Source: Candidatus Fraserbacteria bacterium
Lineage (GTDB): Bacteria; Bipolaricaulota; Bipolaricaulia; RBG-16-55-9
Reading direction: 5' to 3'
NCBI GenBank assembly: GCA_037443265.1
Contig: JBBIOR010000032.1
Coordinates: 1-14,279 of the forward strand
Length of the DNA: 14,279 bases
This document shows, one piece after another, positions 1,364 to 13,965 of this stretch. The notes below the pieces were generated by a model. It was not told the DNA's origin. It saw only the letters and a list, made by a program, of their open reading frames with translations, and did no database searches. Position 1 is the first letter of the stretch. Every line of letters starts with the position of its first letter. Made by a program: the position numbers and the translations under genes.

Positions 1364-2323
1364 GTGATGAACAACAAAAGAGCTTGGTTGTCCATCATGA
1401 GTTTAGTGTTGCTGTTTGCAGCGATTACGGCGCTTGCCATATACCTTCACACAGTGAGTCTGGAGCAAACCTTCATCGGAAGCGTGGCGTGGCTTGCCCA
1501 TGCCTTTGCGGATGAGGTGGCTCATCACACGGCCATGGCCAGTCAAGATGAACGGACTCTGCAAAAAGAATTAGCGATGTGGGCTGAGAAGGTGGTTCAG
1601 GAATACCTGCTTTACGCCCAAGTCGTCAAGGGCGGGCAATCCCTGGCAGAGGCCAAAGCCCCTCAGGCCATCAATGTGAAGCTGGACGTAGAAACTCCCT
1701 CTTCGGAGATGTCAGTCACCAAGGGACACCTAGCTGATGGGACGCCGTACTTAGATATGGTCAAGGCGCTGGAGCTGCCTGAGGGCAGCGATCAGTCAGA
1801 AAGCTATCTGCGCATAGGGGTCTCTCTGGCGCGGGTCAGTTCGGCGATTCAGACGGGCACATTGATCCTCGCACTAGCCAGCCTGGTGGGCATCTTCCTC
1901 GGTTCCCTCCTAATACTCCATCTTAGTCAGGCCAGGGGGGCACAAGAGTCGCAGCCAACGACTGCCTCTGAGCCGGCATCGGCCAGCGCCGGAGTTACTG
2001 GCAAGGAGCCAGGCAGGGCTAACTCCCTCTGGCAGGTTGGCCAGCTGTTGATTGACGATCGACGCAAAGAGGTGCACATCAACGGTCGTAGTGCTCAACT
2101 GACCCCGCGGGAATACGCCGTGTTGAAAGTGCTGGCTTCCGATCCCAATCGGGTCTTCTCCGATGAAGAGATCATTGCTCAGGTCTGGCCAGAGAATTCG
2201 TTGGCCTCCGCTGATGATGTCCGCAAATACATTCGCTTCTTAAGAAAGAAGCTGGAAGAAGACCCCAGAAATCCGCAAGTCATTATCACCATCAAGGGTT
2301 TCGGCTACAGGCTACAGGCCTAA
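1364..2323 (+). CDS. Membrane-anchored transcriptional regulator: two TM helices flanking an extracytoplasmic sensor domain, plus a C-terminal OmpR/PhoB-type winged-helix DNA-binding domain
   Basis: Hydrophobic segments at aa ~7-29 and ~166-187, then a low-complexity linker. C-terminus LLIDDRRKEVHING..QLTPREYAVLKVLASDPNRVFSDEEIIAQVW…VRKYIRFLRKKLEEDPRNPQVIITIKGFGYRL is a classic Trans_reg_C domain. No receiver Asp domain or His-kinase motifs. Start GTG 1364 or ATG 1367. Confidence 0.9.
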   Translation: MMNNKRAWLSIMSLVLLFAAITALAIYLHTVSLEQTFIGSVAWLAHAFADEVAHHTAMASQDERTLQKELAMWAEKVVQEYLLYAQVVKGGQSLAEAKAPQAINVKLDVETPSSEMSVTKGHLADGTPYLDMVKALELPEGSDQSESYLRIGVSLARVSSAIQTGTLILALASLVGIFLGSLLILHLSQARGAQESQPTTASEPASASAGVTGKEPGRANSLWQVGQLLIDDRRKEVHINGRSAQLTPREYAVLKVLASDPNRVFSDEEIIAQVWPENSLASADDVRKYIRFLRKKLEEDPRNPQVIITIKGFGYRLQA

Positions 2324-2450: not shown

Positions 2451-2915
2451 GTGATCTACTCGAATGCTTGTGAATATGCGATTCGGGCATTGACCCATCT
2501 GGCCATGCATCCACAAGAGAAGCTGTGCAAGGAGATTGCAGCCGGTGAGAGGGTCCCCCGCTATTTCTTGGGCAAGATCTTGCAGAGCTTAGTGCGGGCG
2601 GGGCTGCTGCAATCAACGCCGGGGCGCAAGGGTGGCTTCACACTGGCTCGAGCGCCTGAACACATCACACTCTATGATATTAAAGCAGCCATAGACGGCA
2701 CTCGGGATCTCTGTGAATGCGCCATCGGGTTAGAGCAATGCTCTGATGAGACCCCTTGCCCGCTGCATGAGATCTGGAAACCTATCCGACTGCAGCTCAT
2801 GAACTATCTACAGAGAACTACGCTAGCGGAGCTGGCTGCAGCTGTACAGAAGAAAAGGGTTCATAGGGGCAAAGGCCGACGTGGGGCATGTCGAGCTAAC
2901 GGGCTGCAGCCCTGA
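2451..2915 (+). CDS. Rrf2 family transcriptional regulator (likely Fe-S binding)
   Basis: YSNACEYAIRAL, EIA…VPRYFLGKILQSLVRAGLLQSTPGRKGGFTLAR.PE.ITLYDI. C-terminal C-x6-C-x5-C-x2-H (CAIGLEQCSDETPCPLH) resembles the IscR 3Cys/1His ligand set. Confidence 0.95.
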   Translation: MIYSNACEYAIRALTHLAMHPQEKLCKEIAAGERVPRYFLGKILQSLVRAGLLQSTPGRKGGFTLARAPEHITLYDIKAAIDGTRDLCECAIGLEQCSDETPCPLHEIWKPIRLQLMNYLQRTTLAELAAAVQKKRVHRGKGRRGACRANGLQP

Positions 2916-2947
2916 TGACCGTTAGAGTTCTTCAAGGAGGACAAGCC

Positions 2948-4072
2948 ATGGCCAATGTGCGCAGAATTGCTCAGATGACGCGGCGGTCCTTCCTCAAATG
3001 GGGTCTGGCTATAAGCACGCTGGCCGGCCTCAGTGGGGGTGGATATGCCCCCCTTGTGGTAAGAGGGGAGGGATCTTTTGGGCGGGTCGGCGATGTAGTC
3101 GACTTCGCCCTGGAAAGCAGAGAGTGGCCGGGAGACTTCGGGTATGTGACCTTCCGCCTACAGCGCGGCTTCTACGACTGCCAACAGACCTTCTTCATCC
3201 GGACAGATTGCTCGGATCGATCGTTTGCAGAAGAGCAGGGGCTCCGATTCGTTCCCCGCTTAAGGCAAGCCCTTGGTGTTCAAGGGGTCGTTGGGGACTT
3301 GTATCTCTTCAAGGAGGATATAGTTGGAGACCGGGGCTACCGGCCTTTACCGGTGTTGAGCACCGTCCCCGGTCAGCCCGACTACAGCCCCCTCTTTAGG
3401 GTCCACTTCATTACCGAGGCGAAGTTCCCTGAACTTTTGGTCTCGGTGAAGGCGATCGAGGCGAGCGTACGAGTCGGCGAAGCCAAGGTCGAGACGACGG
3501 ACATCGTGGTCAATTATCCCGTGGTCCGGTGGCCTGTGATGACCCCCTCGCCCGAGGGGACCGGCGGCTACGTTGAGCTACCTCACGACACCACACTTGA
3601 AGAATATCTGGGAGGCGGGCAGCTGATCAGGCCGGTTGACCTGCTGAAGCAGACGGTCACCTTCAAGCTCCAGAAGTGTTTCCCCAATTTCCGCTACATC
3701 GTCACGGACGTCTCCATGGCCGATCCGGCGGCGAAGATGAACATCGCCTACTCACCCGGCTTAGCCCGGCTGTGGGAGGCGCGCAAGGCGCTCGCGCGGG
3801 TGTTTGTCTTCGGCAACGGAATCCCCGGTGGAGGTCCTATGGGCTTCCAGTCGAGCATCATGGACCCCAAGGTGACGAGCAATTTCTGGAGCCCGCTCTG
3901 GGAGCACTTCACCGTGCTATGGCAGGACCCGGCCAAGGCCGTGCTGATCACCGACGAGCGGGAGCTTCGCCGCAGGCTGGATCGAGGGGAGCTGGAGCGC
4001 TTCATCGGGACGCCCGCGACCCATCCCCAGGGCTTCGTAGTCAACTGCCCGATCCCGGTGGTGGAAGGGTGA
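2948..4072 (+). CDS. Tat-exported protein of unknown function with two 'SPL(W/F)…VVN(C/Y)P' repeat domains (resembles DUF7482-type proteins)
   Basis: AGGAGG RBS at 2935-2940 before ATG 2948. Twin-arginine motif TRRSFLK followed by an h-region. Internal duplication PDYSPLFRVHF…VVNYPVV / NFWSPLWEHF…VVNCPIP, plus a GGPMGFQ motif. The DUF label is from memory and unverified. Confidence 0.8.
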   Translation: MANVRRIAQMTRRSFLKWGLAISTLAGLSGGGYAPLVVRGEGSFGRVGDVVDFALESREWPGDFGYVTFRLQRGFYDCQQTFFIRTDCSDRSFAEEQGLRFVPRLRQALGVQGVVGDLYLFKEDIVGDRGYRPLPVLSTVPGQPDYSPLFRVHFITEAKFPELLVSVKAIEASVRVGEAKVETTDIVVNYPVVRWPVMTPSPEGTGGYVELPHDTTLEEYLGGGQLIRPVDLLKQTVTFKLQKCFPNFRYIVTDVSMADPAAKMNIAYSPGLARLWEARKALARVFVFGNGIPGGGPMGFQSSIMDPKVTSNFWSPLWEHFTVLWQDPAKAVLITDERELRRRLDRGELERFIGTPATHPQGFVVNCPIPVVEG

Positions 4073-4157: not shown

Positions 4158-4802
4158 ATGAAACTCACGTTCAGAGTTGTCCAGTTGTTGCTGACCGTAG
4201 CGTTGATTGGCATCACAGGTGTCGTCGTGAGCAGCTTACAGCCGACGGAACGCGCGACTGCGGCCCAGCTATCGCCGACCTGCACGGCGAATGCTCCTGT
4301 CAGGGAGTTCTTCGTCGTCACGGGCGAATGGGACACCACACTCAAAGGCCATCTGAAGGATCGTGGGAAAGATCGCCAGAAGGATGAGAAACTGGAGCGC
4401 TACACCTTCGATCCCGCTACCATCATCGTTCACGTAGGGGATTGTGTGGTACTACGCATTCATGACCTCAAGGGAAGCCACCACAACGTGACCATTGAGG
4501 GTACAGGGATTGACTCTGCAGGCGCTCCGATCATCGACGATAGCGGCACAGCGATTGGCACAGCGCGCGCACGACCTAATCCAAACGCTGCCTTTGAAGG
4601 TCCTGCCGATCTAAAAGACGGTGAGTTCGCCCGCGGAGAACAGATCGAGCTCAGGTTCCAAGCGGATCAGCCTGGGACCTTCCGGATCATCTGTGAGGTC
4701 CACACCTTCATTGGCTCCAACGGCGAACTCAAGGGATACGATGACTCGGGCAAACCCATGGGTGGCCCGATGGTCGGTTATCTCGTCGTGTTGCCAAGAT
4801 GA
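4158..4802 (+). CDS. Secreted cupredoxin-domain protein with an extended copper-ligand loop
   Basis: N-terminal signal/anchor. FDPATIIVHVGDCVVLRI, H(H)NVTIEG, F.ADQPGTFRIIC-EV-H…M-VGYLVV give the cupredoxin fold with His/Cys/His/Met ligands. GAGGTGA RBS upstream. Confidence 0.88.
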   Translation: MKLTFRVVQLLLTVALIGITGVVVSSLQPTERATAAQLSPTCTANAPVREFFVVTGEWDTTLKGHLKDRGKDRQKDEKLERYTFDPATIIVHVGDCVVLRIHDLKGSHHNVTIEGTGIDSAGAPIIDDSGTAIGTARARPNPNAAFEGPADLKDGEFARGEQIELRFQADQPGTFRIICEVHTFIGSNGELKGYDDSGKPMGGPMVGYLVVLPR

Positions 4803-5413
4803 TGCCCGGGCATGGAGGTGGGAAGCCTGAGTTGCAGAAGGTGGCTAGGCTTCCCGCCTTCCTTCTTCGATTGAGTCAATTTAAGAAAACTCTCGCCATC
4901 GGCGTAGTCCTCTCGATCGTGATGGCCTTGTTCATCTGGATGCTGCAGCTCGTGGCAGAATATCCCGGTGTGGAGCGCACTTTCATCCTTCCCTCCTGGT
5001 TCACAGGCAGTGCGGAATCTCCTGTTCAGCCTTCACCACAACACGCGCAAGAGACTCTTGAAAAGAACGAGCTAGGTCAATCAGGGGGGTACACGGTCAT
5101 CAGGGGCACAGAAGTGGAGATCAACGAGAGGGAGTACAAGCTGGAGCCGAATCAGATCCGGATAGAAGTCAAGTCGCTCCCAGCCACGATCACCTTCGTG
5201 CTCCACAACCAGGGCCGCTTCTCCCACGACTTCGAGGTCAAAGGCCACGGGATCGACGCCAAAGCCCCCAAGTTCGGCCCCGGGCGCACCCAAGAGTTTG
5301 AGGTGACCTTCGGGGAGCCGGGCGAGTACGAGATCCTCTGCCCGTTGAGCAACCATGCCGAACGCGGCATGCGGGGGACCCTCGTCGTCAAGGGGGAGCA
5401 CGATGCCCGTTGA
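4799..5413 (+). CDS. Membrane-anchored type-1 (blue) copper protein / cupredoxin
   Basis: TM helix at aa ~32-52. EYKLEPNQIRI, FVLHNQG..SHDF, PGEYEILCPLSNHAERGMRGTLVV (C-x4-H-x4-M). ATGA overlap with the upstream gene. Confidence 0.92.
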   Translation: MMPGHGGGKPELQKVARLPAFLLRLSQFKKTLAIGVVLSIVMALFIWMLQLVAEYPGVERTFILPSWFTGSAESPVQPSPQHAQETLEKNELGQSGGYTVIRGTEVEINEREYKLEPNQIRIEVKSLPATITFVLHNQGRFSHDFEVKGHGIDAKAPKFGPGRTQEFEVTFGEPGEYEILCPLSNHAERGMRGTLVVKGEHDAR

Positions 5414-6812
5414 CATCCCAGGACTGGGCGCCCGCAACGCCCTGTGGCTTGTGGCCCAGCTCCACCTCTTCTTTGCGGCCTTTGTGCTCGGCGCGCCCAT
5501 TTTTATTGTTATCAGCGAGTATCTAGGCCTGCGTACCCAAGATCAAAGATACGAGCGCCTCGCGCAAGAGACGATGAAGGTCGTGGCCATTGCCTATTCG
5601 CTCACAGCCATCTTCGGCGTGCTCTTCGCCTTCGTGCTCATGGGGCCCTATCAGCCATTGACGAATTATCTATTTAAGACGCTCTATCCCCTCTGGACCC
5701 TATACGGGCTCTTTATTCTTTTAGAAACCGTCTGCATGTATCTCTATTGGTACACCTGGGGGCCTCTGAGCAAAACACCAGGGCGCAAGTGGGCGCACAT
5801 CAGCCTAGGCGTTCTTTTGAACATTTTGGGTACCATCGTGATGCTCCTCATGAACGCCGTGGGCGGCTTCATGAATACCCCTCCCAAAGAGATCGAAGCG
5901 GCAAGCCTATGGGAGATGGTCAACAACGCCGCCTGGTGGCCGCTGAATCTGCATCGCTTTCTCGGCAACGTGACCTTCGGGGGGTTTGTGGTCGCGCTCT
6001 TTGCGGCCTTTATGTTTCTGACGTCCCCAAAAGAAGAGGACAGAAAATTCTACGACTGGATGGGCTATATTGGGAATTTGATCGGCGTGGGCACGCTCAT
6101 GACGATGCCCCTGGCGGGCTATATTCTCTCCAAAGAACTGTTTCTTTACGACGCGCAGCTGGCAACGTTTATGATGGCCGACAAGCTCTCGGGGTATTTT
6201 GTGGTACAGGGGCTTCTGGTCGTGTTGCTCTTTCTGGGGGCCAATTTTTATATGTGGCTCTCCATGCAGCGCATCGAGGGGGGTCTTCGTTTTGAGCCGC
6301 ACATGAAGGCCATCTTCGCTGTGCTGTTGGCCGGGGGCATCATCTGGGTGGTGCCGCAGAACTTCTTTCCCGATCTTTTGGCCAAGCCCCCGCCGGGGGT
6401 GAGCGAGCAGGCTTTAATCCTGCCAGAGCGTTTTGCGTTCTTGGGTTTGATGGTGGCCAAAGCCTTGGCCGTGACAGCCATTATTATCATGACGTTTGTG
6501 ACGTATCTGCTCTATCGGCGGGCGCGCGCCACGGGCAAAATTTTATGGGGCCGCATCGACCCGATGGCCCAGTACGTTTTGATCTTCATCCCCGCCGTGG
6601 CCGTCTATTTGATGGGGCTGATGGGCGCGATCCGTGAACTTACTCGCATGGACTATCACATTTACGGCCTAATCAAAGACGTGACCCCTTACTGGTATAC
6701 CGTCACGTTGGGGCATTCGTCCATTATGGTGGCGATCACGACGATATTATTTTTCGTGCTGCAGGCGTTCATCTTTTGGGTTGGGTTTGTGATGGGGAAG
6801 GTTTATGAGTGA
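5403..6812 (+). CDS. Cytochrome bd-like oxidase subunit I (CydA fold; resembles the Nitrospira-type/OR-N bd-like oxidases)
   Basis: ATG 5403 after an AAGGGGGAG RBS; polytopic membrane protein. QLHLFFAAFVLG (E. coli CydA H19 equivalent), LLET (E107 equivalent), GFMNTP, NLHRFLGN (H186 equivalent), YDWMGYIGN, GLMVAK (possible M393 equivalent), GAIRELTR (E445/R448 equivalent). No recognisable Q-loop QP.KLAA.E motif. Confidence 0.85.
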   Translation: MPVDIPGLGARNALWLVAQLHLFFAAFVLGAPIFIVISEYLGLRTQDQRYERLAQETMKVVAIAYSLTAIFGVLFAFVLMGPYQPLTNYLFKTLYPLWTLYGLFILLETVCMYLYWYTWGPLSKTPGRKWAHISLGVLLNILGTIVMLLMNAVGGFMNTPPKEIEAASLWEMVNNAAWWPLNLHRFLGNVTFGGFVVALFAAFMFLTSPKEEDRKFYDWMGYIGNLIGVGTLMTMPLAGYILSKELFLYDAQLATFMMADKLSGYFVVQGLLVVLLFLGANFYMWLSMQRIEGGLRFEPHMKAIFAVLLAGGIIWVVPQNFFPDLLAKPPPGVSEQALILPERFAFLGLMVAKALAVTAIIIMTFVTYLLYRRARATGKILWGRIDPMAQYVLIFIPAVAVYLMGLMGAIRELTRMDYHIYGLIKDVTPYWYTVTLGHSSIMVAITTILFFVLQAFIFWVGFVMGKVYE

Positions 6813-7527
6813 TCCCGAAAAGAAGAGGAGCCTCTGGCAGCGCATCAAGGGCCCTGTCCTCTTTGCTGGGGTCAGTTTAGCAGTGATTTGGGGCTTGCTG
6901 CCTCTGGTGCCCCTGAGCTGGGGGGTTCACTTTGGCGTTGCTTATCTCATCTTTTTCAGCCTGGCCGTGCTCAGCGCGGCTCTCTTTTTCGTGCTGCTTA
7001 ACTGGGGGCCTATTGGAAAACCCAACTCCCCCTTGATGACGTTTGCCAGCATCCTGCTCGTCTATGTCGCTACCGTGGGAGGATTGGTGGCCTTCGGGCT
7101 CTGGTATTACCCCCAGTTTGAAATTCCCAAGCCCGTTGTTGAAAAAGAAAAGCCAGAGGAGACCGCAGCGGAGGAGCGGGGTAAAGAAGTCTTCTTGAGC
7201 CCCACGGTCGGCTGCTTTGCGTGTCATTCGATTGAAGCTTTAGGGATCAGAGGCGGGACGAGAGGGCCGGATCTTTCAGAGGTGGGCAAGCAGGCAGAAG
7301 TGCGCCAGCCAGGCATCTCTGCAGAAGATTATCTTAGAGAATCTATCGTGAACCCGTGGGCTTGCTTCACGCCGTTACCCGGCGGCGAACTCGTAGAATG
7401 CCAGCCTACGGCTGATCCTGCGAAGACGTATCCGCCACTCATGCCCCCCGGCTTCGGGGAACGTCTGAGCGAAGAGCAGCTGAATAATCTTATCGCGTTC
7501 TTGAAGAGCCTGAAAGGAGTGCCATGA
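6805..7527 (+). CDS. Membrane-bound monoheme c-type cytochrome (3 N-terminal TM helices)
   Basis: RGKEVF…GCFACHSI (CxxCH), GPDL, YLRESIVNP, distal Met in LMPP, LSEEQLNNLIAFLKSL. Overlaps the oxidase gene stop. Confidence 0.93.
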   Translation: MSDPEKKRSLWQRIKGPVLFAGVSLAVIWGLLPLVPLSWGVHFGVAYLIFFSLAVLSAALFFVLLNWGPIGKPNSPLMTFASILLVYVATVGGLVAFGLWYYPQFEIPKPVVEKEKPEETAAEERGKEVFLSPTVGCFACHSIEALGIRGGTRGPDLSEVGKQAEVRQPGISAEDYLRESIVNPWACFTPLPGGELVECQPTADPAKTYPPLMPPGFGERLSEEQLNNLIAFLKSLKGVP

Positions 7528-7968: not shown

Positions 7969-8862
7969 ATGAAGACATATCGGGAGATTGCGGGCGATGC
8001 CGGGTCGGATATTCTCGGTCAGGTAAAAGAACAACAGGCGCGCCTGCAAGCGCGCCTGGCGCAGATTACACACACAATTGCAGTCATGAGCGGCAAGGGC
8101 GGCGTGGGCAAAAGCGTCATTACAACGAACATGGCTGCTGCCTTGGCGATGCTGGGCCATCAAGTGGGCGTTCTGGATGCGGACATCAACGGGCCTTCTG
8201 TTGCCAAGATGTTTGGAGTGCGGGGTCAGACCCTCAAGGTTGGCAAAAACGGAGTCGTCCCTGTCCTTGGACCCTTGGGGATCAAAATCATCTCCATGGA
8301 TCTCCTGCTGTCCCGAGATGAGGCGCCGGTGGTCTGGGATGCCCCAGCGCAGCAAGATCCCTTCGTCTGGCGTGGCACGATAGAAGTTAGCACGCTTAGA
8401 GAATTTCTTGCCGATACGGACTGGGGAGAATTAGATTTTCTTTTGATCGATCTCCCTCCGGGCCCAGAGCGGTTGCCCAATCTCCCTGGCCTGCTTCCCG
8501 TATTGCACACAATCGTCGTGACCATCCCCTCGGAGGTCGCGCAGCTCACGGTGAAGAGATCCATCGCTTTAGCCCAGCAGCTGAAGGCAAAGCTTCTGGG
8601 ACTGATAGAGAACATGGCGGGCTATCTCTGCCGGAAGTGCGGCGCGTTAGGTGAGCTTTTCCCCAGCAGTGGGGAGGAAACCGTGAATGTCCTGGGCGTG
8701 CCCCTCTTGGGGAAGATCCCCTTCGATCCGCGCATCGCCCGTTGCTCAGATCGGGGCATCCCTTTCGTCCTCGAGCATAAAGACACAACAGCCGGAGAGG
8801 CGTTCGCCCAGATTGCCCAAAAGATCAAAAGAAACATCACTTTTGGGGAGGGTGAGCGATGA
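7969..8862 (+). CDS. mrp: Mrp/NBP35/ApbC family P-loop ATPase (Fe-S cluster carrier)
   Basis: GGAGGTG RBS before ATG 7969. Deviant Walker A SGKGGVGKS, LDADINGPS, ISMDLL, WRG, WGELDFLLIDLPPG, VVTIP, GLIENM..Y.CRKC, LGKIPFDP. Confidence 0.95.
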   Translation: MKTYREIAGDAGSDILGQVKEQQARLQARLAQITHTIAVMSGKGGVGKSVITTNMAAALAMLGHQVGVLDADINGPSVAKMFGVRGQTLKVGKNGVVPVLGPLGIKIISMDLLLSRDEAPVVWDAPAQQDPFVWRGTIEVSTLREFLADTDWGELDFLLIDLPPGPERLPNLPGLLPVLHTIVVTIPSEVAQLTVKRSIALAQQLKAKLLGLIENMAGYLCRKCGALGELFPSSGEETVNVLGVPLLGKIPFDPRIARCSDRGIPFVLEHKDTTAGEAFAQIAQKIKRNITFGEGER

Positions 8863-9251
8863 AGTTCTTATGTGTCGCGTGCGATGAGGCCATGAAGTAC
8901 GCGGAGGCCCAAGGGCCGGAGGCGGGCTCGTTGTCTGTTGTTTTTCACTGTCCCCACTGTGGCTATAGAGTGGCTCTGTTGACCAATCCATGGGAGACCC
9001 AATTGGTTCGCAGCTTGGGAGTTGTCATCGGTGGGCGGACGGTTCCCTCCGAGCCTTTGGAGTTAGTACGGACGACCCTGGCTGACAGCAAGCTTCTGTG
9101 GACGGCCGAGGCCGAGGAGCGCTTGGAGCGAGTGCCCGAGTTTGCGCGGGCCATGGCCCGCCAAAGCATCGAACGCTATGCCCGAGAGCAAGGCTACCAC
9201 GAGATCACTCCCCACGTGATGGATGAAGCCAGAGCCAAGCTCGGGCTGTAA
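8859..9251 (+). CDS. CxxC…CxxC (Zn-ribbon/metal-binding) protein with a C-terminal PCP_red (protochlorophyllide reductase C-terminal-like) domain
   Basis: CVAC…CPHC, then TNPWETQLVRSLGV.IGG, then WTAEAEERLERVPEFARAMARQSIERYAREQGYHEITPHVMDEAR (W-x2-EA…L.+VP.F.R…IE..A…G…IT pattern). ATGA overlap with mrp. Confidence 0.85.
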   Translation: MKFLCVACDEAMKYAEAQGPEAGSLSVVFHCPHCGYRVALLTNPWETQLVRSLGVVIGGRTVPSEPLELVRTTLADSKLLWTAEAEERLERVPEFARAMARQSIERYAREQGYHEITPHVMDEARAKLGL

Positions 9252-9254
9252 ACG

Positions 9255-10523
9255 ATGAGAAACAATTATCTCCCTAGAGTCGTCTGCTGGAACGTGACAC
9301 AAGCGTGTAATTTGCGCTGTCCCCATTGCTACTTGGCCGCAGGCACCCATGCTGCGCGCGAGCTTTCCACAGAAGAGGGCTTCCAGCTCATCAACCAGTT
9401 ACGTGAGCTTGGGACTCAGCTGCTCATACTCACGGGCGGCGAGCCCCTGCTGCGTCGCGATCTCTTCACGCTTGCCCGCCATGCCGCGGAGCGTGACCTG
9501 ATGGTCGTGCTAGGCAGCAATGGGACACTGCTTGACGAGAATGCTGTCAAAAGGCTTAAAGGGAGCGGTGTGCAGGGGGTAGGGATCAGCTTAGATTCCC
9601 TCGACCCGGAGAAGCACGATACCTTCCGAGGGCTCCAGGGCGCTTGGGAGAAGGCTGTCCGCGCCATTGACATGTGTGTGAGTCAGAGTTTAGAAGTCGC
9701 TGTGCAAACGAGCGTCCTGCCCATGAACTATGACGAAGTCCCACAAATGATCGAGCTTGCCTATGAGGAAGGTGCGCGGGCTTTTAACGCTTACTTTCTG
9801 GTCTGTACGGGCCGCGGCGAGCGGCTCACGGACATCACCCCCCAGCAGTACGAGGCGCTTCTTCATGATTTGATAGACGCACAAGTGCACTACGCAAAGC
9901 ACGGCTTCCTCGTGCGGGCCAAGTGCGCTCCGCACGTCAAGCGCTTGGCCTATGAACGCTTGAGCTTACACAGCGACAACTCGCCAGGGGCCGTGGGGCT
10001 TCTGGCCAGTGCGGGCTGCCCAGCAGGCACCAGCTATTTAAGAATCGGGCCCGAAGGCGACGTCACCCCCTGTCCTTATTTGCCCTTCGTGCTGGGTAAC
10101 GTCCGGCAGCAGGCATTGCATGAGATTTGGGAGGGGCAGCAGGGCCGCAGCCTCACTTTGCTGAAGCTGCGGGCTTTGGAGCTTCAAGGCCGCTGCGGGG
10201 TCTGTGAGTTCAAAAATCTCTGCGTCGGTTGTCGCGCGCGGGCTTTTGCTTTGACTGGAAATCTGCTCGGTGAAGATCCGTGGTGCACCTATCAGCCCAG
10301 GTGCCGACAGCCGTTCGCCCTTACGTGGACTCCCGAGGCACTGACGCGAATTGAAGAAATCCCTCCGTTCCTTCGGGAGCGCGTCAAGCAGGGTGTGGAA
10401 GCGTACGCGCGGGCGCGCGGCATTCGCCAAATCACCCCAGCGCTCTTGGCAGAGTTGCGAGTGGGCTCCTTCGGGAAAAGAGCAGCCACACAAGGGTCGC
10501 CGAGAAAGGATGAGCATGTATAA
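9255..10523 (+). CDS. Radical SAM/SPASM protein, AhbD/NirJ-like, fused to a C-terminal PCP_red domain
   Basis: WNVTQACNLRCPHCY (CxxxCxxC), ELST.E, LTGGEPLLR, SNGTL, ISLDS…HD.FRG..GAW, FLVCTGRG, KCAPH. SPASM Cys: CPAG, CPY, CGVC…C.GCRARA, DPWC. Tail WTPEALTRIEEIPPFLRERVK..VEAYARARG…IT. Confidence 0.93.
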   Translation: MRNNYLPRVVCWNVTQACNLRCPHCYLAAGTHAARELSTEEGFQLINQLRELGTQLLILTGGEPLLRRDLFTLARHAAERDLMVVLGSNGTLLDENAVKRLKGSGVQGVGISLDSLDPEKHDTFRGLQGAWEKAVRAIDMCVSQSLEVAVQTSVLPMNYDEVPQMIELAYEEGARAFNAYFLVCTGRGERLTDITPQQYEALLHDLIDAQVHYAKHGFLVRAKCAPHVKRLAYERLSLHSDNSPGAVGLLASAGCPAGTSYLRIGPEGDVTPCPYLPFVLGNVRQQALHEIWEGQQGRSLTLLKLRALELQGRCGVCEFKNLCVGCRARAFALTGNLLGEDPWCTYQPRCRQPFALTWTPEALTRIEEIPPFLRERVKQGVEAYARARGIRQITPALLAELRVGSFGKRAATQGSPRKDEHV

Positions 10524-11559
10524 GCGCATTCTGGTCGCGATCGACAACTCCAAATATGCCGTGCAGGCATCTGAGCTGGCCGTAGAACTGGCACAGAATT
10601 TCCAAGCACACCTCACCGGCGTCCACGTGACTAATGCCGGACTACACACATATGCTTTCCGTCGGCTCGAGGGAACCCTTCCCGTCCCGTATCAAAGCGA
10701 AGAAGTTTTGCAGCAACAACGAGAAATTCACGAAGATCTCATCCGTCGAGGACTCACGTTGATCAGCGATTCTTATTTTGAGCCGTTGCGGCAGCGAGCA
10801 CAAGCTGCAGGCATCCCTTGTGAGACCAAAGTTTTAGAGGGCCGGCACTACGAGGTGTTATCCGGAGAGATTACAGAGGGGGCCTACGATCTGGCTGCCT
10901 TCGGGCACTTGGGTCTTGGGGCATGCGAGCGCTCCATGCTCGGCGGCGTGGTGGAGCGGGTGGCTCGCCGCGTCAGAAAAGATCTTTGGGTTATCAAAGA
11001 GGCAAGGGCTCTGGAAGACGGGAAAATTTTGGTCGCTGTGGACGGGTCTGAATACTCCTTCTGGGCTCTGCGCAAGGCGATCGTCTTGGCGAAAAGATTC
11101 CAAGCTCAGCTACACGCTGTGCACGTCTTCGACCCGGATTTCCATCGTACGATCTTTCAAGAGCTGGTGGGTGTGCTCACCGAAAGAGCCGCAGAGGTTT
11201 TCGATTTCGAGGGTCAACAAGAGTTGCACGACAGAGTCATCGACAAGGGGCTCGAGCAGGTGGGGCAGCGCGTGCTACGTAGCTGTAAGCTAGCAGCAGA
11301 GCACAGTGGCATTCCCATTGCGGTGACGTTGCTTAAGGGCAAATTCTTCAAAAAGATCGTTGAGGCAACCGAAATCCTAGATCCCTCATTGCTGGTCATG
11401 GGCCGATTTGGCCGACACCGAGTCGAATCTTCAGATTTAGGGAGTACTGCAGAGAACGTGCTGCGCCTTGCGCCTTGTAGCGTCTTAATTGTGAGTACCG
11501 ACGTGCCTGAGACAATGAAGCACTTCAAGACTCCAACAGCCGTTGGAGCTGGGGGGTGA
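10516..11559 (+). CDS. Tandem universal stress protein (two USP domains, each with a His-containing helical insert)
   Basis: MYKRILVAIDNS…G(HL)GLG…LGGVVERVARR, then KILVAVDGSEYS…LLVMGRFG…LGSTAENVLRLAPCSVLIV. AAAGGA RBS favours ATG 10516 (alternative 10510). Confidence 0.93.
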   Translation: MYKRILVAIDNSKYAVQASELAVELAQNFQAHLTGVHVTNAGLHTYAFRRLEGTLPVPYQSEEVLQQQREIHEDLIRRGLTLISDSYFEPLRQRAQAAGIPCETKVLEGRHYEVLSGEITEGAYDLAAFGHLGLGACERSMLGGVVERVARRVRKDLWVIKEARALEDGKILVAVDGSEYSFWALRKAIVLAKRFQAQLHAVHVFDPDFHRTIFQELVGVLTERAAEVFDFEGQQELHDRVIDKGLEQVGQRVLRSCKLAAEHSGIPIAVTLLKGKFFKKIVEATEILDPSLLVMGRFGRHRVESSDLGSTAENVLRLAPCSVLIVSTDVPETMKHFKTPTAVGAGG

Positions 11560-11692
11560 GCTTGCTTGGCTGGCTCTTGTGCCGGCTGCTATACTCGCTT
11601 CTGGTCGCCGATGGGAGCGGCACGCACCCTGATCGATTTTGGAGCCACGCTCCAAGGGCCAACGGGAAGAACGAACGGGGGGAAGGAGAGCG

Positions 11693-12244
11693 ATGGGCCT
11701 CTACGTTTATGTGCTTTTGGGGTTGCTGGGCTTCGTCTGGAGCTTGCGGTACCCTCCGCCGCCGGCGGGTGAGGTTCGGACGGTGACCGTAGAGCTGTTC
11801 GAGTGGGGGATCGCGCTCGACCCGACGCCTTTGCCGGCCGGTCCGATCCGCTTTCGGGTGATCAATAGGGGCAGCATCGGCCATGCCTTTGCCTTGGCCC
11901 TCGTCGGGTCGGAGCGGGCGACTCGGGTGTTCGGACCCGGGCAGACTGAGATGGTGGACGCGGACCTCCTTCCGGGGAGGTATGCGATTTGGTGTCCCGT
12001 CCCTGGTCACCGAGAGCGGGGCATGGAGGCGGAGCTGCGGGTCTTGGCCGTCCCGCCCTCGGCCGGGAAGCGGGTGCTCCGGCTGAAGCGCTTTGACCGC
12101 AACGGGAACGATCTCCTCGACGATCCAGAGTTCTTTGCGATCATCGATGCCTGGGTCGCTAGGGAACTCGACGATGCCACCTTCTTCCTGGCCATCGACC
12201 TGTGGGTCGGTCGACGGCCGATCTCCTCGGTGGCCGGAATGTGA
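11693..12244 (+). CDS. Exported cupredoxin (type-1 Cu) with a C-terminal EF-hand/dockerin-like domain
   Basis: AAGGAG RBS before ATG 11693; hydrophobic N-terminus. FRVINRGSIGHAF, PGRYAIWCPVPGHRERGMEAELRV (C-x4-H-x4-M). Tail FDRNGNDLLDDPEFFAIIDAW…LDDATFFLAIDLW. Confidence 0.9.
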   Translation: MGLYVYVLLGLLGFVWSLRYPPPPAGEVRTVTVELFEWGIALDPTPLPAGPIRFRVINRGSIGHAFALALVGSERATRVFGPGQTEMVDADLLPGRYAIWCPVPGHRERGMEAELRVLAVPPSAGKRVLRLKRFDRNGNDLLDDPEFFAIIDAWVARELDDATFFLAIDLWVGRRPISSVAGM

Positions 12245-12321: not shown

Positions 12322-13148
12322 ACTTTCGCTATTGCCACAAGTCTTTCACGGAGTCAAGATGGCCTCCCCTTCCGGCTTGGGGACGGAGACAGGGGAGAGG
12401 AACGGGAAGACCCACAGAACAGAAGCAACCGTCCGAGGGCTGCCAGCCACCCCTTCACCTCCGTGGCCGTCTGGATCAACCTCCATCCCCATGCGTGCCG
12501 CACCTCTCCCAAGTTGGGCTGCTGCCCCACCAACTACCGACCTCAGCGGGTCAGAGCCGCCAATACATAGGCCAACAGCACCAGCTCCACCCAGCGCTCC
12601 AGACTCCGCTTCCCCCGGCAGCGGCAGTCCCCTAACCCAAAGTGCTCCTTGAGCGTCTTGAACATCGTCTCAATCCCCCAACGCCGCTTGAGGTGCCGCA
12701 GGATCTGGCTGCGGTTCCAGGAGAGTTCCGTGCAGATCACCGTGCGACGTCCCCGACCCCGCCCGCGAGGGACGATCCGCAGAGGGATCCCCAGGCCTTG
12801 CAGGTGCGCGATCGTCTCCTCCGAGACCTCCCCGGCCCGCCTCCCATCGGAGAGCCGGCGATTCTTCCGCACCCAACCCACCACGGGGAATCCGCGTTCC
12901 CGGGCTGCCTCCAGCACCGGAGCGCAGCAGTAGGTACTGTCGACCAACACCACCACCCGGCTGCCCGGCGGGGGCTCAAAGGTCCGGATCATCTCCGCTG
13001 CCAGCTCGGTCCGCTTGCGGAAGGCCTCCTCCTCCAAGAAGCGCTCGTTGACGTAGCCCCGCCAATCCCAGGGCACCACTTCCCAACCGGTCTCACCGAC
13101 GGACTCAACTTCCCCACCAAACGCCTCAGAAGTCAGGAGCTTGCCCAC
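12322..13148 (-). mobile_element. Degenerate IS701-like (DDE, IS4 superfamily) insertion sequence remnant
   Basis: Contains the transposase fragment. A possible distal end GCGAAAGT (minus strand) lies at 12322-12329. Boundaries are approximate and no paired TIR or target duplication was seen. Confidence 0.6.
12543..13148 (-). pseudogene. Truncated IS701-family transposase (C-terminal half only)
   Basis: PWDWRGY…FRKRTELAAEMI, VVVLVDSTY (second D), RKNR, RRWGIETMFKTLKEHFGLGDCRCR…ERWVELVLLAY (E motif). The N-terminal half is absent. The frame is broken by TGA (12543) and TAG (12534). Confidence 0.85.
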
Positions 13149-13250
13149 CCTGGTCTATGAGTCTCTAGCGCAAGTAGACATTAGAGTAAGGATTCGTGGG
13201 GCGGGAGGCTCGGATGTCCTTGACTCTGGGGATCGAATGACGGCACCCTC

Positions 13251-13739
13251 TTACGTAGACTCCGCCAGCTTTGCCAAGTGTTCCCTAACCCTCTTGAGCA
13301 GCTCCCCAGGCGGCACCACCTGAAGCGGTGCCGGAGGATCCGGGTAGTCGCTCGTGTTGAAGGTCACCAGATAATGACAACCGTTCAGCAGGGCCGCCGC
13401 CAGCACCGGGAGGTCTTTCGCCTGGGCCCGACCGGACCATGGCTTCAGGGCTGACGCCGGAGGATCCGGTACCCCTCTCAACGCTGCCTGTACCAGCGCC
13501 TGAAAGACCGGCAGAGCCTGCGGGAGCTTCTTCTTCAGGTTCCGCTCCACCTCCACCCGCACATAGGGACAGATGAGCCCGTCAATCAGGGTGAGCTCTG
13601 CAAGCTGCAGCAAGATGTAGCTGGCCGAGGAGTGGGTCTTCGAGGCCGAACCGGCAATGAGCACGTCGGCATCGAAGAAGACGCGCAGCTTACCGGGAGC
13701 GGCCGTAGCGCTCTCGGTAGAGTCGTCGGCGCTGCTCAT
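13251..13739 (-). CDS. PIN-domain toxin (VapC-like RNase) of a type II TA pair
   Basis: LRVFFDADVLIAG, EVERNL, KDLPVLAAAL, YLVTFNTSDY (acidic PIN tetrad). Overlaps the antitoxin 3' end. GAGG RBS before ATG 13739. Confidence 0.9.
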   Translation of the reverse strand: MSSADDSTESATAAPGKLRVFFDADVLIAGSASKTHSSASYILLQLAELTLIDGLICPYVRVEVERNLKKKLPQALPVFQALVQAALRGVPDPPASALKPWSGRAQAKDLPVLAAALLNGCHYLVTFNTSDYPDPPAPLQVVPPGELLKRVREHLAKLAEST

Positions 13740-13965
13740 CTAAGCCCTCGAGCAGGTCTTCTACGCTAAGCCCGGCAGCCTGGCGGAGTCGCTGGATCTC
13801 GCCCACCAGCTTGGGGACCAGGGGTACCTTCGGAGCCAGGATAAAGATTCCTTCGAGATCCAAGAGGGTAAGGGGCTCCCCCTCTTCCAAGCGATATTTC
13901 TTGCGGAGCTCCACGGGCAGGGTGAGAGTTCCACGGTTACGCAGCGTGAGCGTCTTGGTGTTCAT
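13690..13965 (-). CDS. AbrB/MazE/SpoVT-family antitoxin
   Basis: LRNRGTLTLPVELRKKYRLEEGE.L…EGIFILAP swapped-hairpin motif. Lies directly upstream of the PIN gene. Confidence 0.92.
   Translation of the reverse strand: MNTKTLTLRNRGTLTLPVELRKKYRLEEGEPLTLLDLEGIFILAPKVPLVPKLVGEIQRLRQAAGLSVEDLLEGLDEQRRRLYRERYGRSR

Follow-up and report, generated by a model that had tools for sequence, protein, structure and literature searches.

A four-gene cassette in a stretch of DNA from Candidatus Fraserbacteria (contig JBBIOR010000032.1 of assembly GCA_037443265.1, 14,279 nucleotides, henceforth the window) probably encodes a module, dedicated to the OR-N bd-like oxidases, that matures and delivers heme in the cytoplasm. 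The cassette codes for an Mrp-type ATPase, a small protein with CxxC motifs and a PCP_red domain, a radical S-adenosylmethionine (SAM) enzyme with a SPASM domain, and a tandem universal stress protein (USP); its presumed client is the CydA-like OR-N subunit encoded upstream. The confidence that we place in this module is the sum of that in its two possible forms. Tentatively, the radical SAM enzyme might make an undescribed heme from coproheme or heme b, with the USP delivering it to the remodelled oxygen-reduction site of the OR-N protein; a possibility that we regard, taken singly, as rather doubtful is that heme b itself is made or inserted specifically for the oxidase. The observations behind the module are the gene anatomy, the motifs, the separate clade of the radical SAM enzyme, the tight co-occurrence with OR-N and the alternative heme b routes of the hosts, and from these we infer its substrate and product, heme binding by the USP, iron-sulfur (Fe-S) transfer and the part played by PCP_red.

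We analyzed co-occurrence in four samples of genomes, each searched twice, for the OR-N CydA and then for one cassette marker, either the CxxC protein or the USP with its histidine-bearing inserts. Among the host's own relatives, the oxidase and the CxxC marker were found in the same three of 61 genomes, setting aside a weak CxxC match in G056 (20.8 bits) and a weak CydA match in G003 (25.9 bits). In the Gemmatimonadetes (the phylum of G075), the oxidase and the USP marker each occur in 42 of the 151 genomes, 41 of them in common; of the 201 genomes from the phylum of G085 (Thermoanaerobaculia), 14 have both and none has just one of the two; and in that of G072 the oxidase is present in four of 49 genomes and the marker in three, all of which are within the four. 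Thus, both are found in 61 of 462 genomes, the oxidase alone in two, the marker alone in one and neither in 398. The discordant genomes lie at contig ends: G138 and G206 break off within the cassette, while the CydA of G626 starts at the end of its contig. Likewise, OR-N is present in 27 of the 28 genomes found via the CxxC protein, and the locus of the remaining genome ends in the first part of CydA. The first-pass annotation, made from the sequence of the window, had taken the cassette to be specific to bd-like oxidases and had advised profiling it against OR-N CydA. The profile, run with one marker per sample, upholds this specificity for the OR-N clade; its extension to bd-like oxidases in general is unsupported, as G003 (one genome, 88% complete) has an OR-C-type CydA and no cassette marker. 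At the locus in question (L131:2331-4961), this CydA has a C-terminal cytochrome c domain and lies beside an unannotated partner, with no cassette.

Judged by its sequence, the radical SAM enzyme is a member of a lineage that is sister to AhbD, and is not a canonical AhbD. The CX3CX2C motif (C18/22/25) is invariant in 35 of 35 aligned rows, and a full catalytic set of radical SAM/SPASM cysteines is likewise invariant. The protein also has C224, C255 and C273 as well as C314/317/323/326/344, the last five of which retain the CX2CX5CX2CX17C auxiliary-cluster motif described for AhbD (PMC10114771). The xTGRG and CAP motifs are also shared with AhbD. However, the enzyme falls below every curated cut-off with which it was compared: 310 bits against 500 for NirJ2 (TIGR04055), 301 against 500 for AhbD (TIGR04545), 277 against 395 for TIGR04053 and 215 against 515 for NirJ (TIGR04051). 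Five homologs score 276-339 bits against the TIGR04545 cut-off of 500. A further difference from AhbD, and an addition to what the first-pass annotation had recognized, is a C-terminal PCP_red domain, which is found as PF08369 on all of the 120 top homologs listed, including named proteins from Chloroflexota and anammox bacteria. The anammox enzymes have extra PCP_red-like repeats and the enzyme of locus L115 a PCP_red-like tail.

We constructed a careful tree from the core domains without PCP_red, using 44 of 71 rows, after removal of PqqE and of 26 close relatives, and, as AhbD references, ten AhbD-like proteins of 420-496 bits in place of the characterized M. barkeri or D. vulgaris enzymes. 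In it, 18 cassette enzymes form a single clade (support 99/97) on the AhbD side, separated from NirJ and AhbC with support of 100/100 and lying outside a clade of AhbD-like and TIGR04053 proteins (100/95). In a faster tree, built from 72 rows, two Nitrospira-type enzymes fall inside the cassette clade (31 rows, support 99). This placement, which had been sought against AhbC, AhbD and NirJ, bears out the AhbD half of the earlier description "AhbD/NirJ-like" and sets aside the other half: NirJ identity is ruled out by the TIGR04051 score and the different clade. A tblastn search of the 88% complete host genome with one NirDL query gave no match to nirDLGH partners. The bit score and the separate clade also speak against a canonical AhbD, and so bear on the concern that the enzyme might be a bona fide housekeeping AhbD. 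Conversion of coproheme to heme b, as AhbD performs it, may nevertheless be its reaction. The cassette recalls the nir gene set for heme d1 in its logic, namely a dedicated set of genes, a radical SAM gene among them, that supplies a single respiratory enzyme with its special heme. HemW offers another precedent, that of a radical SAM protein inserting heme b into a respiratory complex (PMC10114771); however, it is CgdH-like and lacks SPASM, and its homology to the cassette enzyme is at the superfamily level only. The cassette would work like the nir or HemW accessory systems while being a member of neither. No radical SAM protein of the cassette type was found in plasmids, the best identity there being about 36%.

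Other routes to heme b are open to the host. Its genome (1.69 Mb, 88% complete) encodes hemA, B, C, D, E and L, a ChdC-like protein (194 bits) and the ferrochelatase HemH, with no HemY found at this completeness; a TIGR04053 enzyme (450 bits) is present as well. Paralogs of the TIGR04053 clade are present in eight other cassette genomes, in one of which (G061, L071) the gene lies within a hem operon. From this context, and by analogy with HVO_2144 of H. volcanii as presented in PMC5746218 and PMC8305020, TIGR04053 proteins would be an anaerobic AhbD. At L031:7456-8999 (G000, contig C14) a second Rrf2 regulator, 60% identical to that of the window, is coupled to a TIGR04053 radical SAM gene, hinting at shared regulation of the latter enzyme and that of the cassette. 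Across 51 cassette-associated genomes, the ChdC-like matches reach at least 174 bits in 19, lie at 134-163 bits in nine (possibly chlorite dismutase), are weak in eight and are missing in 15. In betaproteobacteria, all six full-length HemY-like genes of four genomes sit at OR-N islands, and in G075 the cassette genes are interspersed among those of a complete hem operon that lies immediately upstream of CydA. Given these HemY islands, the hem operon of G075 and the presence of ChdC, HemF or TIGR04053, heme is the likely subject of the cassette, and other genes usually provide for its bulk supply.

It could be argued that the enzyme is instead an AhbD isozyme, i.e. a general oxygen-independent heme b synthase for the bulk pool that tracks OR-N only through shared low-oxygen regulation and operon transfer. 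Its AhbD-side placement, AhbD motifs and hem-operon context in G075 would fit this, some database sources name its members "AdoMet-dependent heme synthase", none of the 51 genomes has an AhbD over the cut-off, and H. volcanii is described as using ChdC aerobically and AhbD anaerobically (PMC5746218). However, we consider such a housekeeping role unlikely because the host is equipped in any case with ChdC and with another AhbD-like paralog, of the clade that elsewhere stands in a hem operon; moreover, HemF is encoded in the four betaproteobacterial hosts, which lack ChdC, and an enzyme serving the bulk pool should not be absent from the 398 genomes without OR-N (a count that uses the USP or CxxC marker and not the radical SAM enzyme).

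The Mrp protein of the cassette is a dedicated paralog. Like the Fe-S carriers of the Mrp/ApbC/NBP35 group, it has a deviant Walker A motif (GKGGVGKS) and a C-terminal CxxC, and in an alignment of 17 rows GKGGVGK, C221 and C224 (C-x2-C) are invariant; unlike them, it scores below the equivalog cut-offs for ApbC (167 against 348) and MrpORP (254 against 450). The housekeeping Mrp of the host is encoded separately on contig C2, is 37% identical and has an FeS_assembly_P domain, which the cassette protein lacks, having instead a family-specific N-terminal helix. In the CxxC protein, C5, C8, C31 and C34 (CxxC...CxxC) are invariant in 31 of 31 rows, and it is predicted to bind metal. A Cys-Pro-Phe motif, of a type known as the heme regulatory motif, is found in the linker of 20 of the 31 homologs. 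PF08369 has only two matches in this genome, both of them in the cassette. This 45-residue domain is otherwise the C-terminal domain of BchB/ChlB in the dark-operative protochlorophyllide reductase (DPOR; 2KRU, 2L09), whose gene set, like the cassette, also includes a P-loop ATPase partner. A DPOR-like reductase is ruled out, as domain scans detect no BchN/BchB core or catalytic subunits. Look-ups in a protein-cluster atlas returned PCP_red or generic USP clusters only. Some loci (L012:10517-11410, L022:16587-17366, L075:4709-5962) encode a fifth member built mostly of repeated PCP_red domains.

The USP is modelled with confidence as a tandem USP fold (pLDDT, the predicted local distance difference test score, 93.8), for which Foldseek ranks Rv2623 (E 5e-17) and TTHA0350 (E 3e-16) best. 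Both domains share with those proteins a G-2x-G-9x-G motif (at G130 and G296), which we take to be the ATP-binding motif. Unlike them, each domain has a helical insert of about 28 residues with two histidines, H44/H72 aligning exactly with H210/H238 across the internal repeat. These histidines are invariant wherever covered among 80 metagenome homologs (78, 79, 80 and 80 rows), which together with the repeat alignment confirms the His-insert USP that had been recognized at first sight; the protein also has H301. The inserts would make it a putative heme-binding protein. In most homologs there are also one to three PCP_red domains, frequently along with a rubredoxin-like one, fusions that again set them apart from Rv2623 and TTHA0350. 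The nucleotide-binding motifs, along with the rubredoxin-like domains and Cys-Pro motifs of the homologs, could also be expected of a module that senses heme, redox state or oxygen and regulates the oxidase instead of building its cofactor, and UspA proteins, perhaps including this USP, are reported to rise under low oxygen in N. marina (PMC8115632). Yet none of the four proteins shows a DNA-binding or signalling domain in a Pfam scan, the catalytic cysteine set of the radical SAM enzyme is fully invariant, and the Rrf2 regulator is separately encoded; a sensing role is thus distinctly unlikely.

The presumed client fits OR-N as defined in bioRxiv 2021.01.16.426971 in having the CydA N-terminal domain, no CydB, no CxxCH in CydA and a cytochrome c partner. 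According to PMC10839748, OR-N proteins have been proposed to act as terminal oxidases in Nitrospira, Nitrospinota and manganese oxidizers, their composition and function being described there as without experimental confirmation. Across 35 OR-N sequences, H21, E108, H132, H184, M404, M407 and also H419 are invariant where covered, and an invariant Y101 stands at the position of E101 in Geobacillus CydA. Serine occupies position 412 in 27 of 32 sequences; by motif comparison, and not by alignment, this position would be that of the glutamate that ligates heme in canonical bd oxidases. This remodelled site is compatible with a different heme and is not proof of one. A low-confidence model of CydA (pLDDT 59), used for helix count and fold only, has about 11 long helices and a fold that matches bd oxidases. 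The compact CydA of the window is 39-43% identical to longer forms. Since it is 85-89% identical to betaproteobacterial copies and present in only three of 61 relatives, its sequence suggests a recent transfer of the island between phyla.

The same site raises the prospect that the radical SAM enzyme modifies the oxidase protein or a metal site in it, for example through a cross-link at the invariant Tyr or His, or at a copper site, and not free heme. SPASM enzymes such as PqqE, its closest solved relative, cross-link residues; Y101 and H419 are invariant in OR-N; a copper site has been proposed for one Nitrospira bd-like oxidase (PMC6606698); and a DUF4149/CopD-like gene (the CopD match being below cut-off) lies behind the USP-radical SAM pair of Nitrospira. 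We consider this very unlikely, as the enzyme groups with AhbD-like enzymes that act on heme, HemY and the hem-operon context point to a tetrapyrrole, no PqqD/RRE domain or precursor peptide was seen, and Y101 and H419 lie in membrane helices. More improbable still is a client other than OR-N, such as a heme-copper oxidase, an NXR/Nar gamma subunit or a cytochrome c. CoxI/II/III, CtaA, EB_dh-type cytochromes and molybdopterin enzymes do recur in the islands, but in that of the window OR-N is accompanied only by one cytochrome c and cupredoxins, the heme-copper oxidase of the host is on another contig with its own CtaA, and OR-N is the constant neighbour among the genome loci. NXR/Nar-type molybdopterin genes share islands with OR-N and the cassette at L022, L026, L028, L087 and L125, betaproteobacteria included.

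The four genes are not an obligate block: this is ruled out by the unlinked CxxC gene of Rokubacteria and the standalone USP-radical SAM pair of Nitrospira. In five of five Rokubacteria-type genomes the CxxC gene and the oxidase are on different contigs, with other PCP_red proteins at about 13-16 kb or less from CydA in four of them. Among 80 metagenome loci anchored on the USP, many of them on short contigs, the radical SAM gene is present in 52, OR-N in nine, Mrp in nine and CxxC in seven; in the 18 that extend for at least 16 kb, these include the radical SAM gene in 17 and OR-N in only four. A context of ubiE, a B12-radical SAM gene, USP, radical SAM and DUF4149 is common to 40 of the 80 loci, with proteins named Nitrospira or Nitrospirota. 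For instance, at L148:7322-14095 (Nitrospira) the pair lies between ubiE with a B12-binding radical SAM gene and the DUF4149/CopD-like membrane gene. The order and gene lengths recur in N. moscoviensis (NITMOv2_0500-0496), matched without sequence from Table S1 of PMC6606698, where the transcription of the USP and radical SAM genes ranks 152 and 748 (9.3x and 3.3x the median); that organism has four bd-like oxidase genes, far from the pair. The presence of OR-N in Nitrospira is itself taken from the literature. That the CxxC gene in Rokubacteria and the pair in Nitrospira are kept without linkage to the oxidase counts in favour of the module. The N. moscoviensis gene annotated as mrp (NITMOv2_2065) was rejected as the cassette Mrp, since it adjoins lipA and ferredoxin and so looks housekeeping.

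Because the Nitrospira pair stands alone, with neither Mrp nor CxxC in its vicinity, we distinguish a core of USP and radical SAM enzyme from a second pair of Mrp and CxxC protein. Identities between the window and betaproteobacteria support this split, at 60-75% for Mrp and CxxC and about 42-43% for USP and radical SAM. The Nitrospira connection, offered in the first-pass annotation, holds for the USP and radical SAM enzyme, by named loci and by synteny in N. moscoviensis; for the CxxC protein, no homolog named Nitrospira is among the 120 matches listed (most of which are unnamed). The annotation had given occurrence independent of bd-like oxidases as grounds for rejecting its proposal; genome-wide, the cassette markers track OR-N, with the Nitrospira pair standing apart from the oxidase.

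In the mechanism that we propose for the heme module, the radical SAM enzyme of the first sub-module would use radical chemistry to alter a side chain of coproheme or heme b; the USP, with its ATP motifs, would hold the heme through its paired histidines and hand it to the oxidase. In the second, the dedicated Mrp ATPase and the small metal-binding CxxC adaptor would load the Fe-S clusters needed by the radical SAM enzyme. The PCP_red domains on several members are probably shared docking or tetrapyrrole-binding modules.

Several observations weigh against this proposal or its more specific form. Dedicated synthesis or insertion of heme b fits the evidence equally as well as a modified heme, and an all-heme-b bd enzyme is described as active (bioRxiv 2021.01.16.426971). 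In the window, the CxxC protein lacks the Cys-Pro motif and the USP lacks PCP_red. Canonical bd oxidases are not known to require a heme d synthase. OR-N is missing nearby from 14 of the 18 metagenome loci of at least 16 kb, 13 of these 14 being in the Nitrospira-type context, and many islands also have heme-copper oxidase or NXR/Nar-type genes. Finally, the co-occurrence counts come from incomplete, related genomes, with mostly physically linked positives and a positive centre in each sample; as most of the co-occurrence reflects physical linkage and shared ancestry, they overstate the independence of the cases.

The four open reading frames (7969-11559) are tightly coupled and close a single run of plus-strand genes (Table 1). 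They had been described as lying directly behind the oxidase and cytochrome c genes, with no other heme-biosynthesis gene in the window. The coupling holds, with overlaps and short gaps, although a gene for a membrane protein intervenes, and none of the 17 window proteins scanned belongs to a heme-biosynthesis family beyond the cassette. The intervening protein is 57-78% identical in eight of the eight loci compared, and its gene is retained between cytochrome c and Mrp, or nearby, in compact-oxidase loci. The nearest related loci are from Bipolaricaulia and Fraserbacteria. The two upstream cupredoxins are likely electron donors to the oxidase, and their recurrence in compact-oxidase loci suggests such a use of copper proteins by a bd-family enzyme. 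With a third cupredoxin-like gene on the other side, three flank the oxidase in total; the third protein has an EF-hand-like C-terminal tail and several relatives elsewhere in the genome. The DUF7482 protein is retained in L002 and missing from the other close loci. The membrane-anchored protein ahead of the run has several genomic paralogs and is also found upstream of the island in L001 and L002. A promoter scan was at chance level (four found against 3.6 expected).

Table 1. Features of the cassette and its surroundings in the window
Feature	Position	Strand	Remarks
Membrane-anchored protein	1364-2323		OmpR-type DNA-binding domain, no receiver match
Rrf2 regulator	2451-2915	+	Heads gene run; same order in locus L002
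Tat-exported DUF7482 protein	2915-4072	+	Directly behind Rrf2
Two cupredoxins	4158-4802 and 4799-5413	+	Weak PF13473/PF00127 matches; conserved upstream of compact CydA
OR-N-type bd-like oxidase subunit (CydA-like), compact, 469 aa	5403-6812	+	Presumed client; PF01654, residues 12-247
Membrane-anchored monoheme cytochrome c	6805-7527	+	Oxidase partner; PF00034; behind CydA in related loci too
Membrane protein, 145 aa	7524-7961	+	No family; no match in family scans
Mrp ATPase, 297 aa	7969-8862	+	Starts 7 bp past 145-aa gene; PF10609, 251 bits
CxxC-PCP_red protein, 130 aa	8859-9251	+	ATGA overlap with Mrp; PF08369, 66 bits
PCP_red domain of CxxC protein	9099-9233	+	68.5 bits
Radical SAM/SPASM enzyme, 422 aa	9255-10523	+	3-bp gap after CxxC gene; PF04055, PF13186, PF08369
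PCP_red domain of radical SAM enzyme, C-terminus	10326-10460	+	Residues 358-402; 53.8 bits
Tandem USP, 347 aa	10516-11559	+	8-bp overlap with radical SAM gene; PF00582 twice
Third cupredoxin-like protein	11639-12244		
IS701-like transposase fragment and PIN/AbrB toxin-antitoxin-like pair	12543-13965	-	Downstream of island

A full-text literature search, in which subscription journals were mostly uncovered, returned no description of this gene set; the supplement of the OR-N preprint, which gives operon contexts, may mention the genes. The analysis puts a name to a new AhbD-related enzyme, whose product should be findable by a simple assay using liquid chromatography-mass spectrometry. If OR-N needs the module, heterologous expression of the oxidase without the cassette would fail, and the four genes are what should be co-expressed; the compact operon of the window (about 9 kb, with one oxidase subunit and one cytochrome c) is a convenient unit for this. 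If the module is as we propose, PCP_red would have a function outside photosynthesis. Moreover, were the radical SAM enzyme to make a new heme, the terminal oxidase proposed for Nitrospira and related lithotrophs would use a cofactor of its own, produced by an assembly line organized by PCP_red domains.

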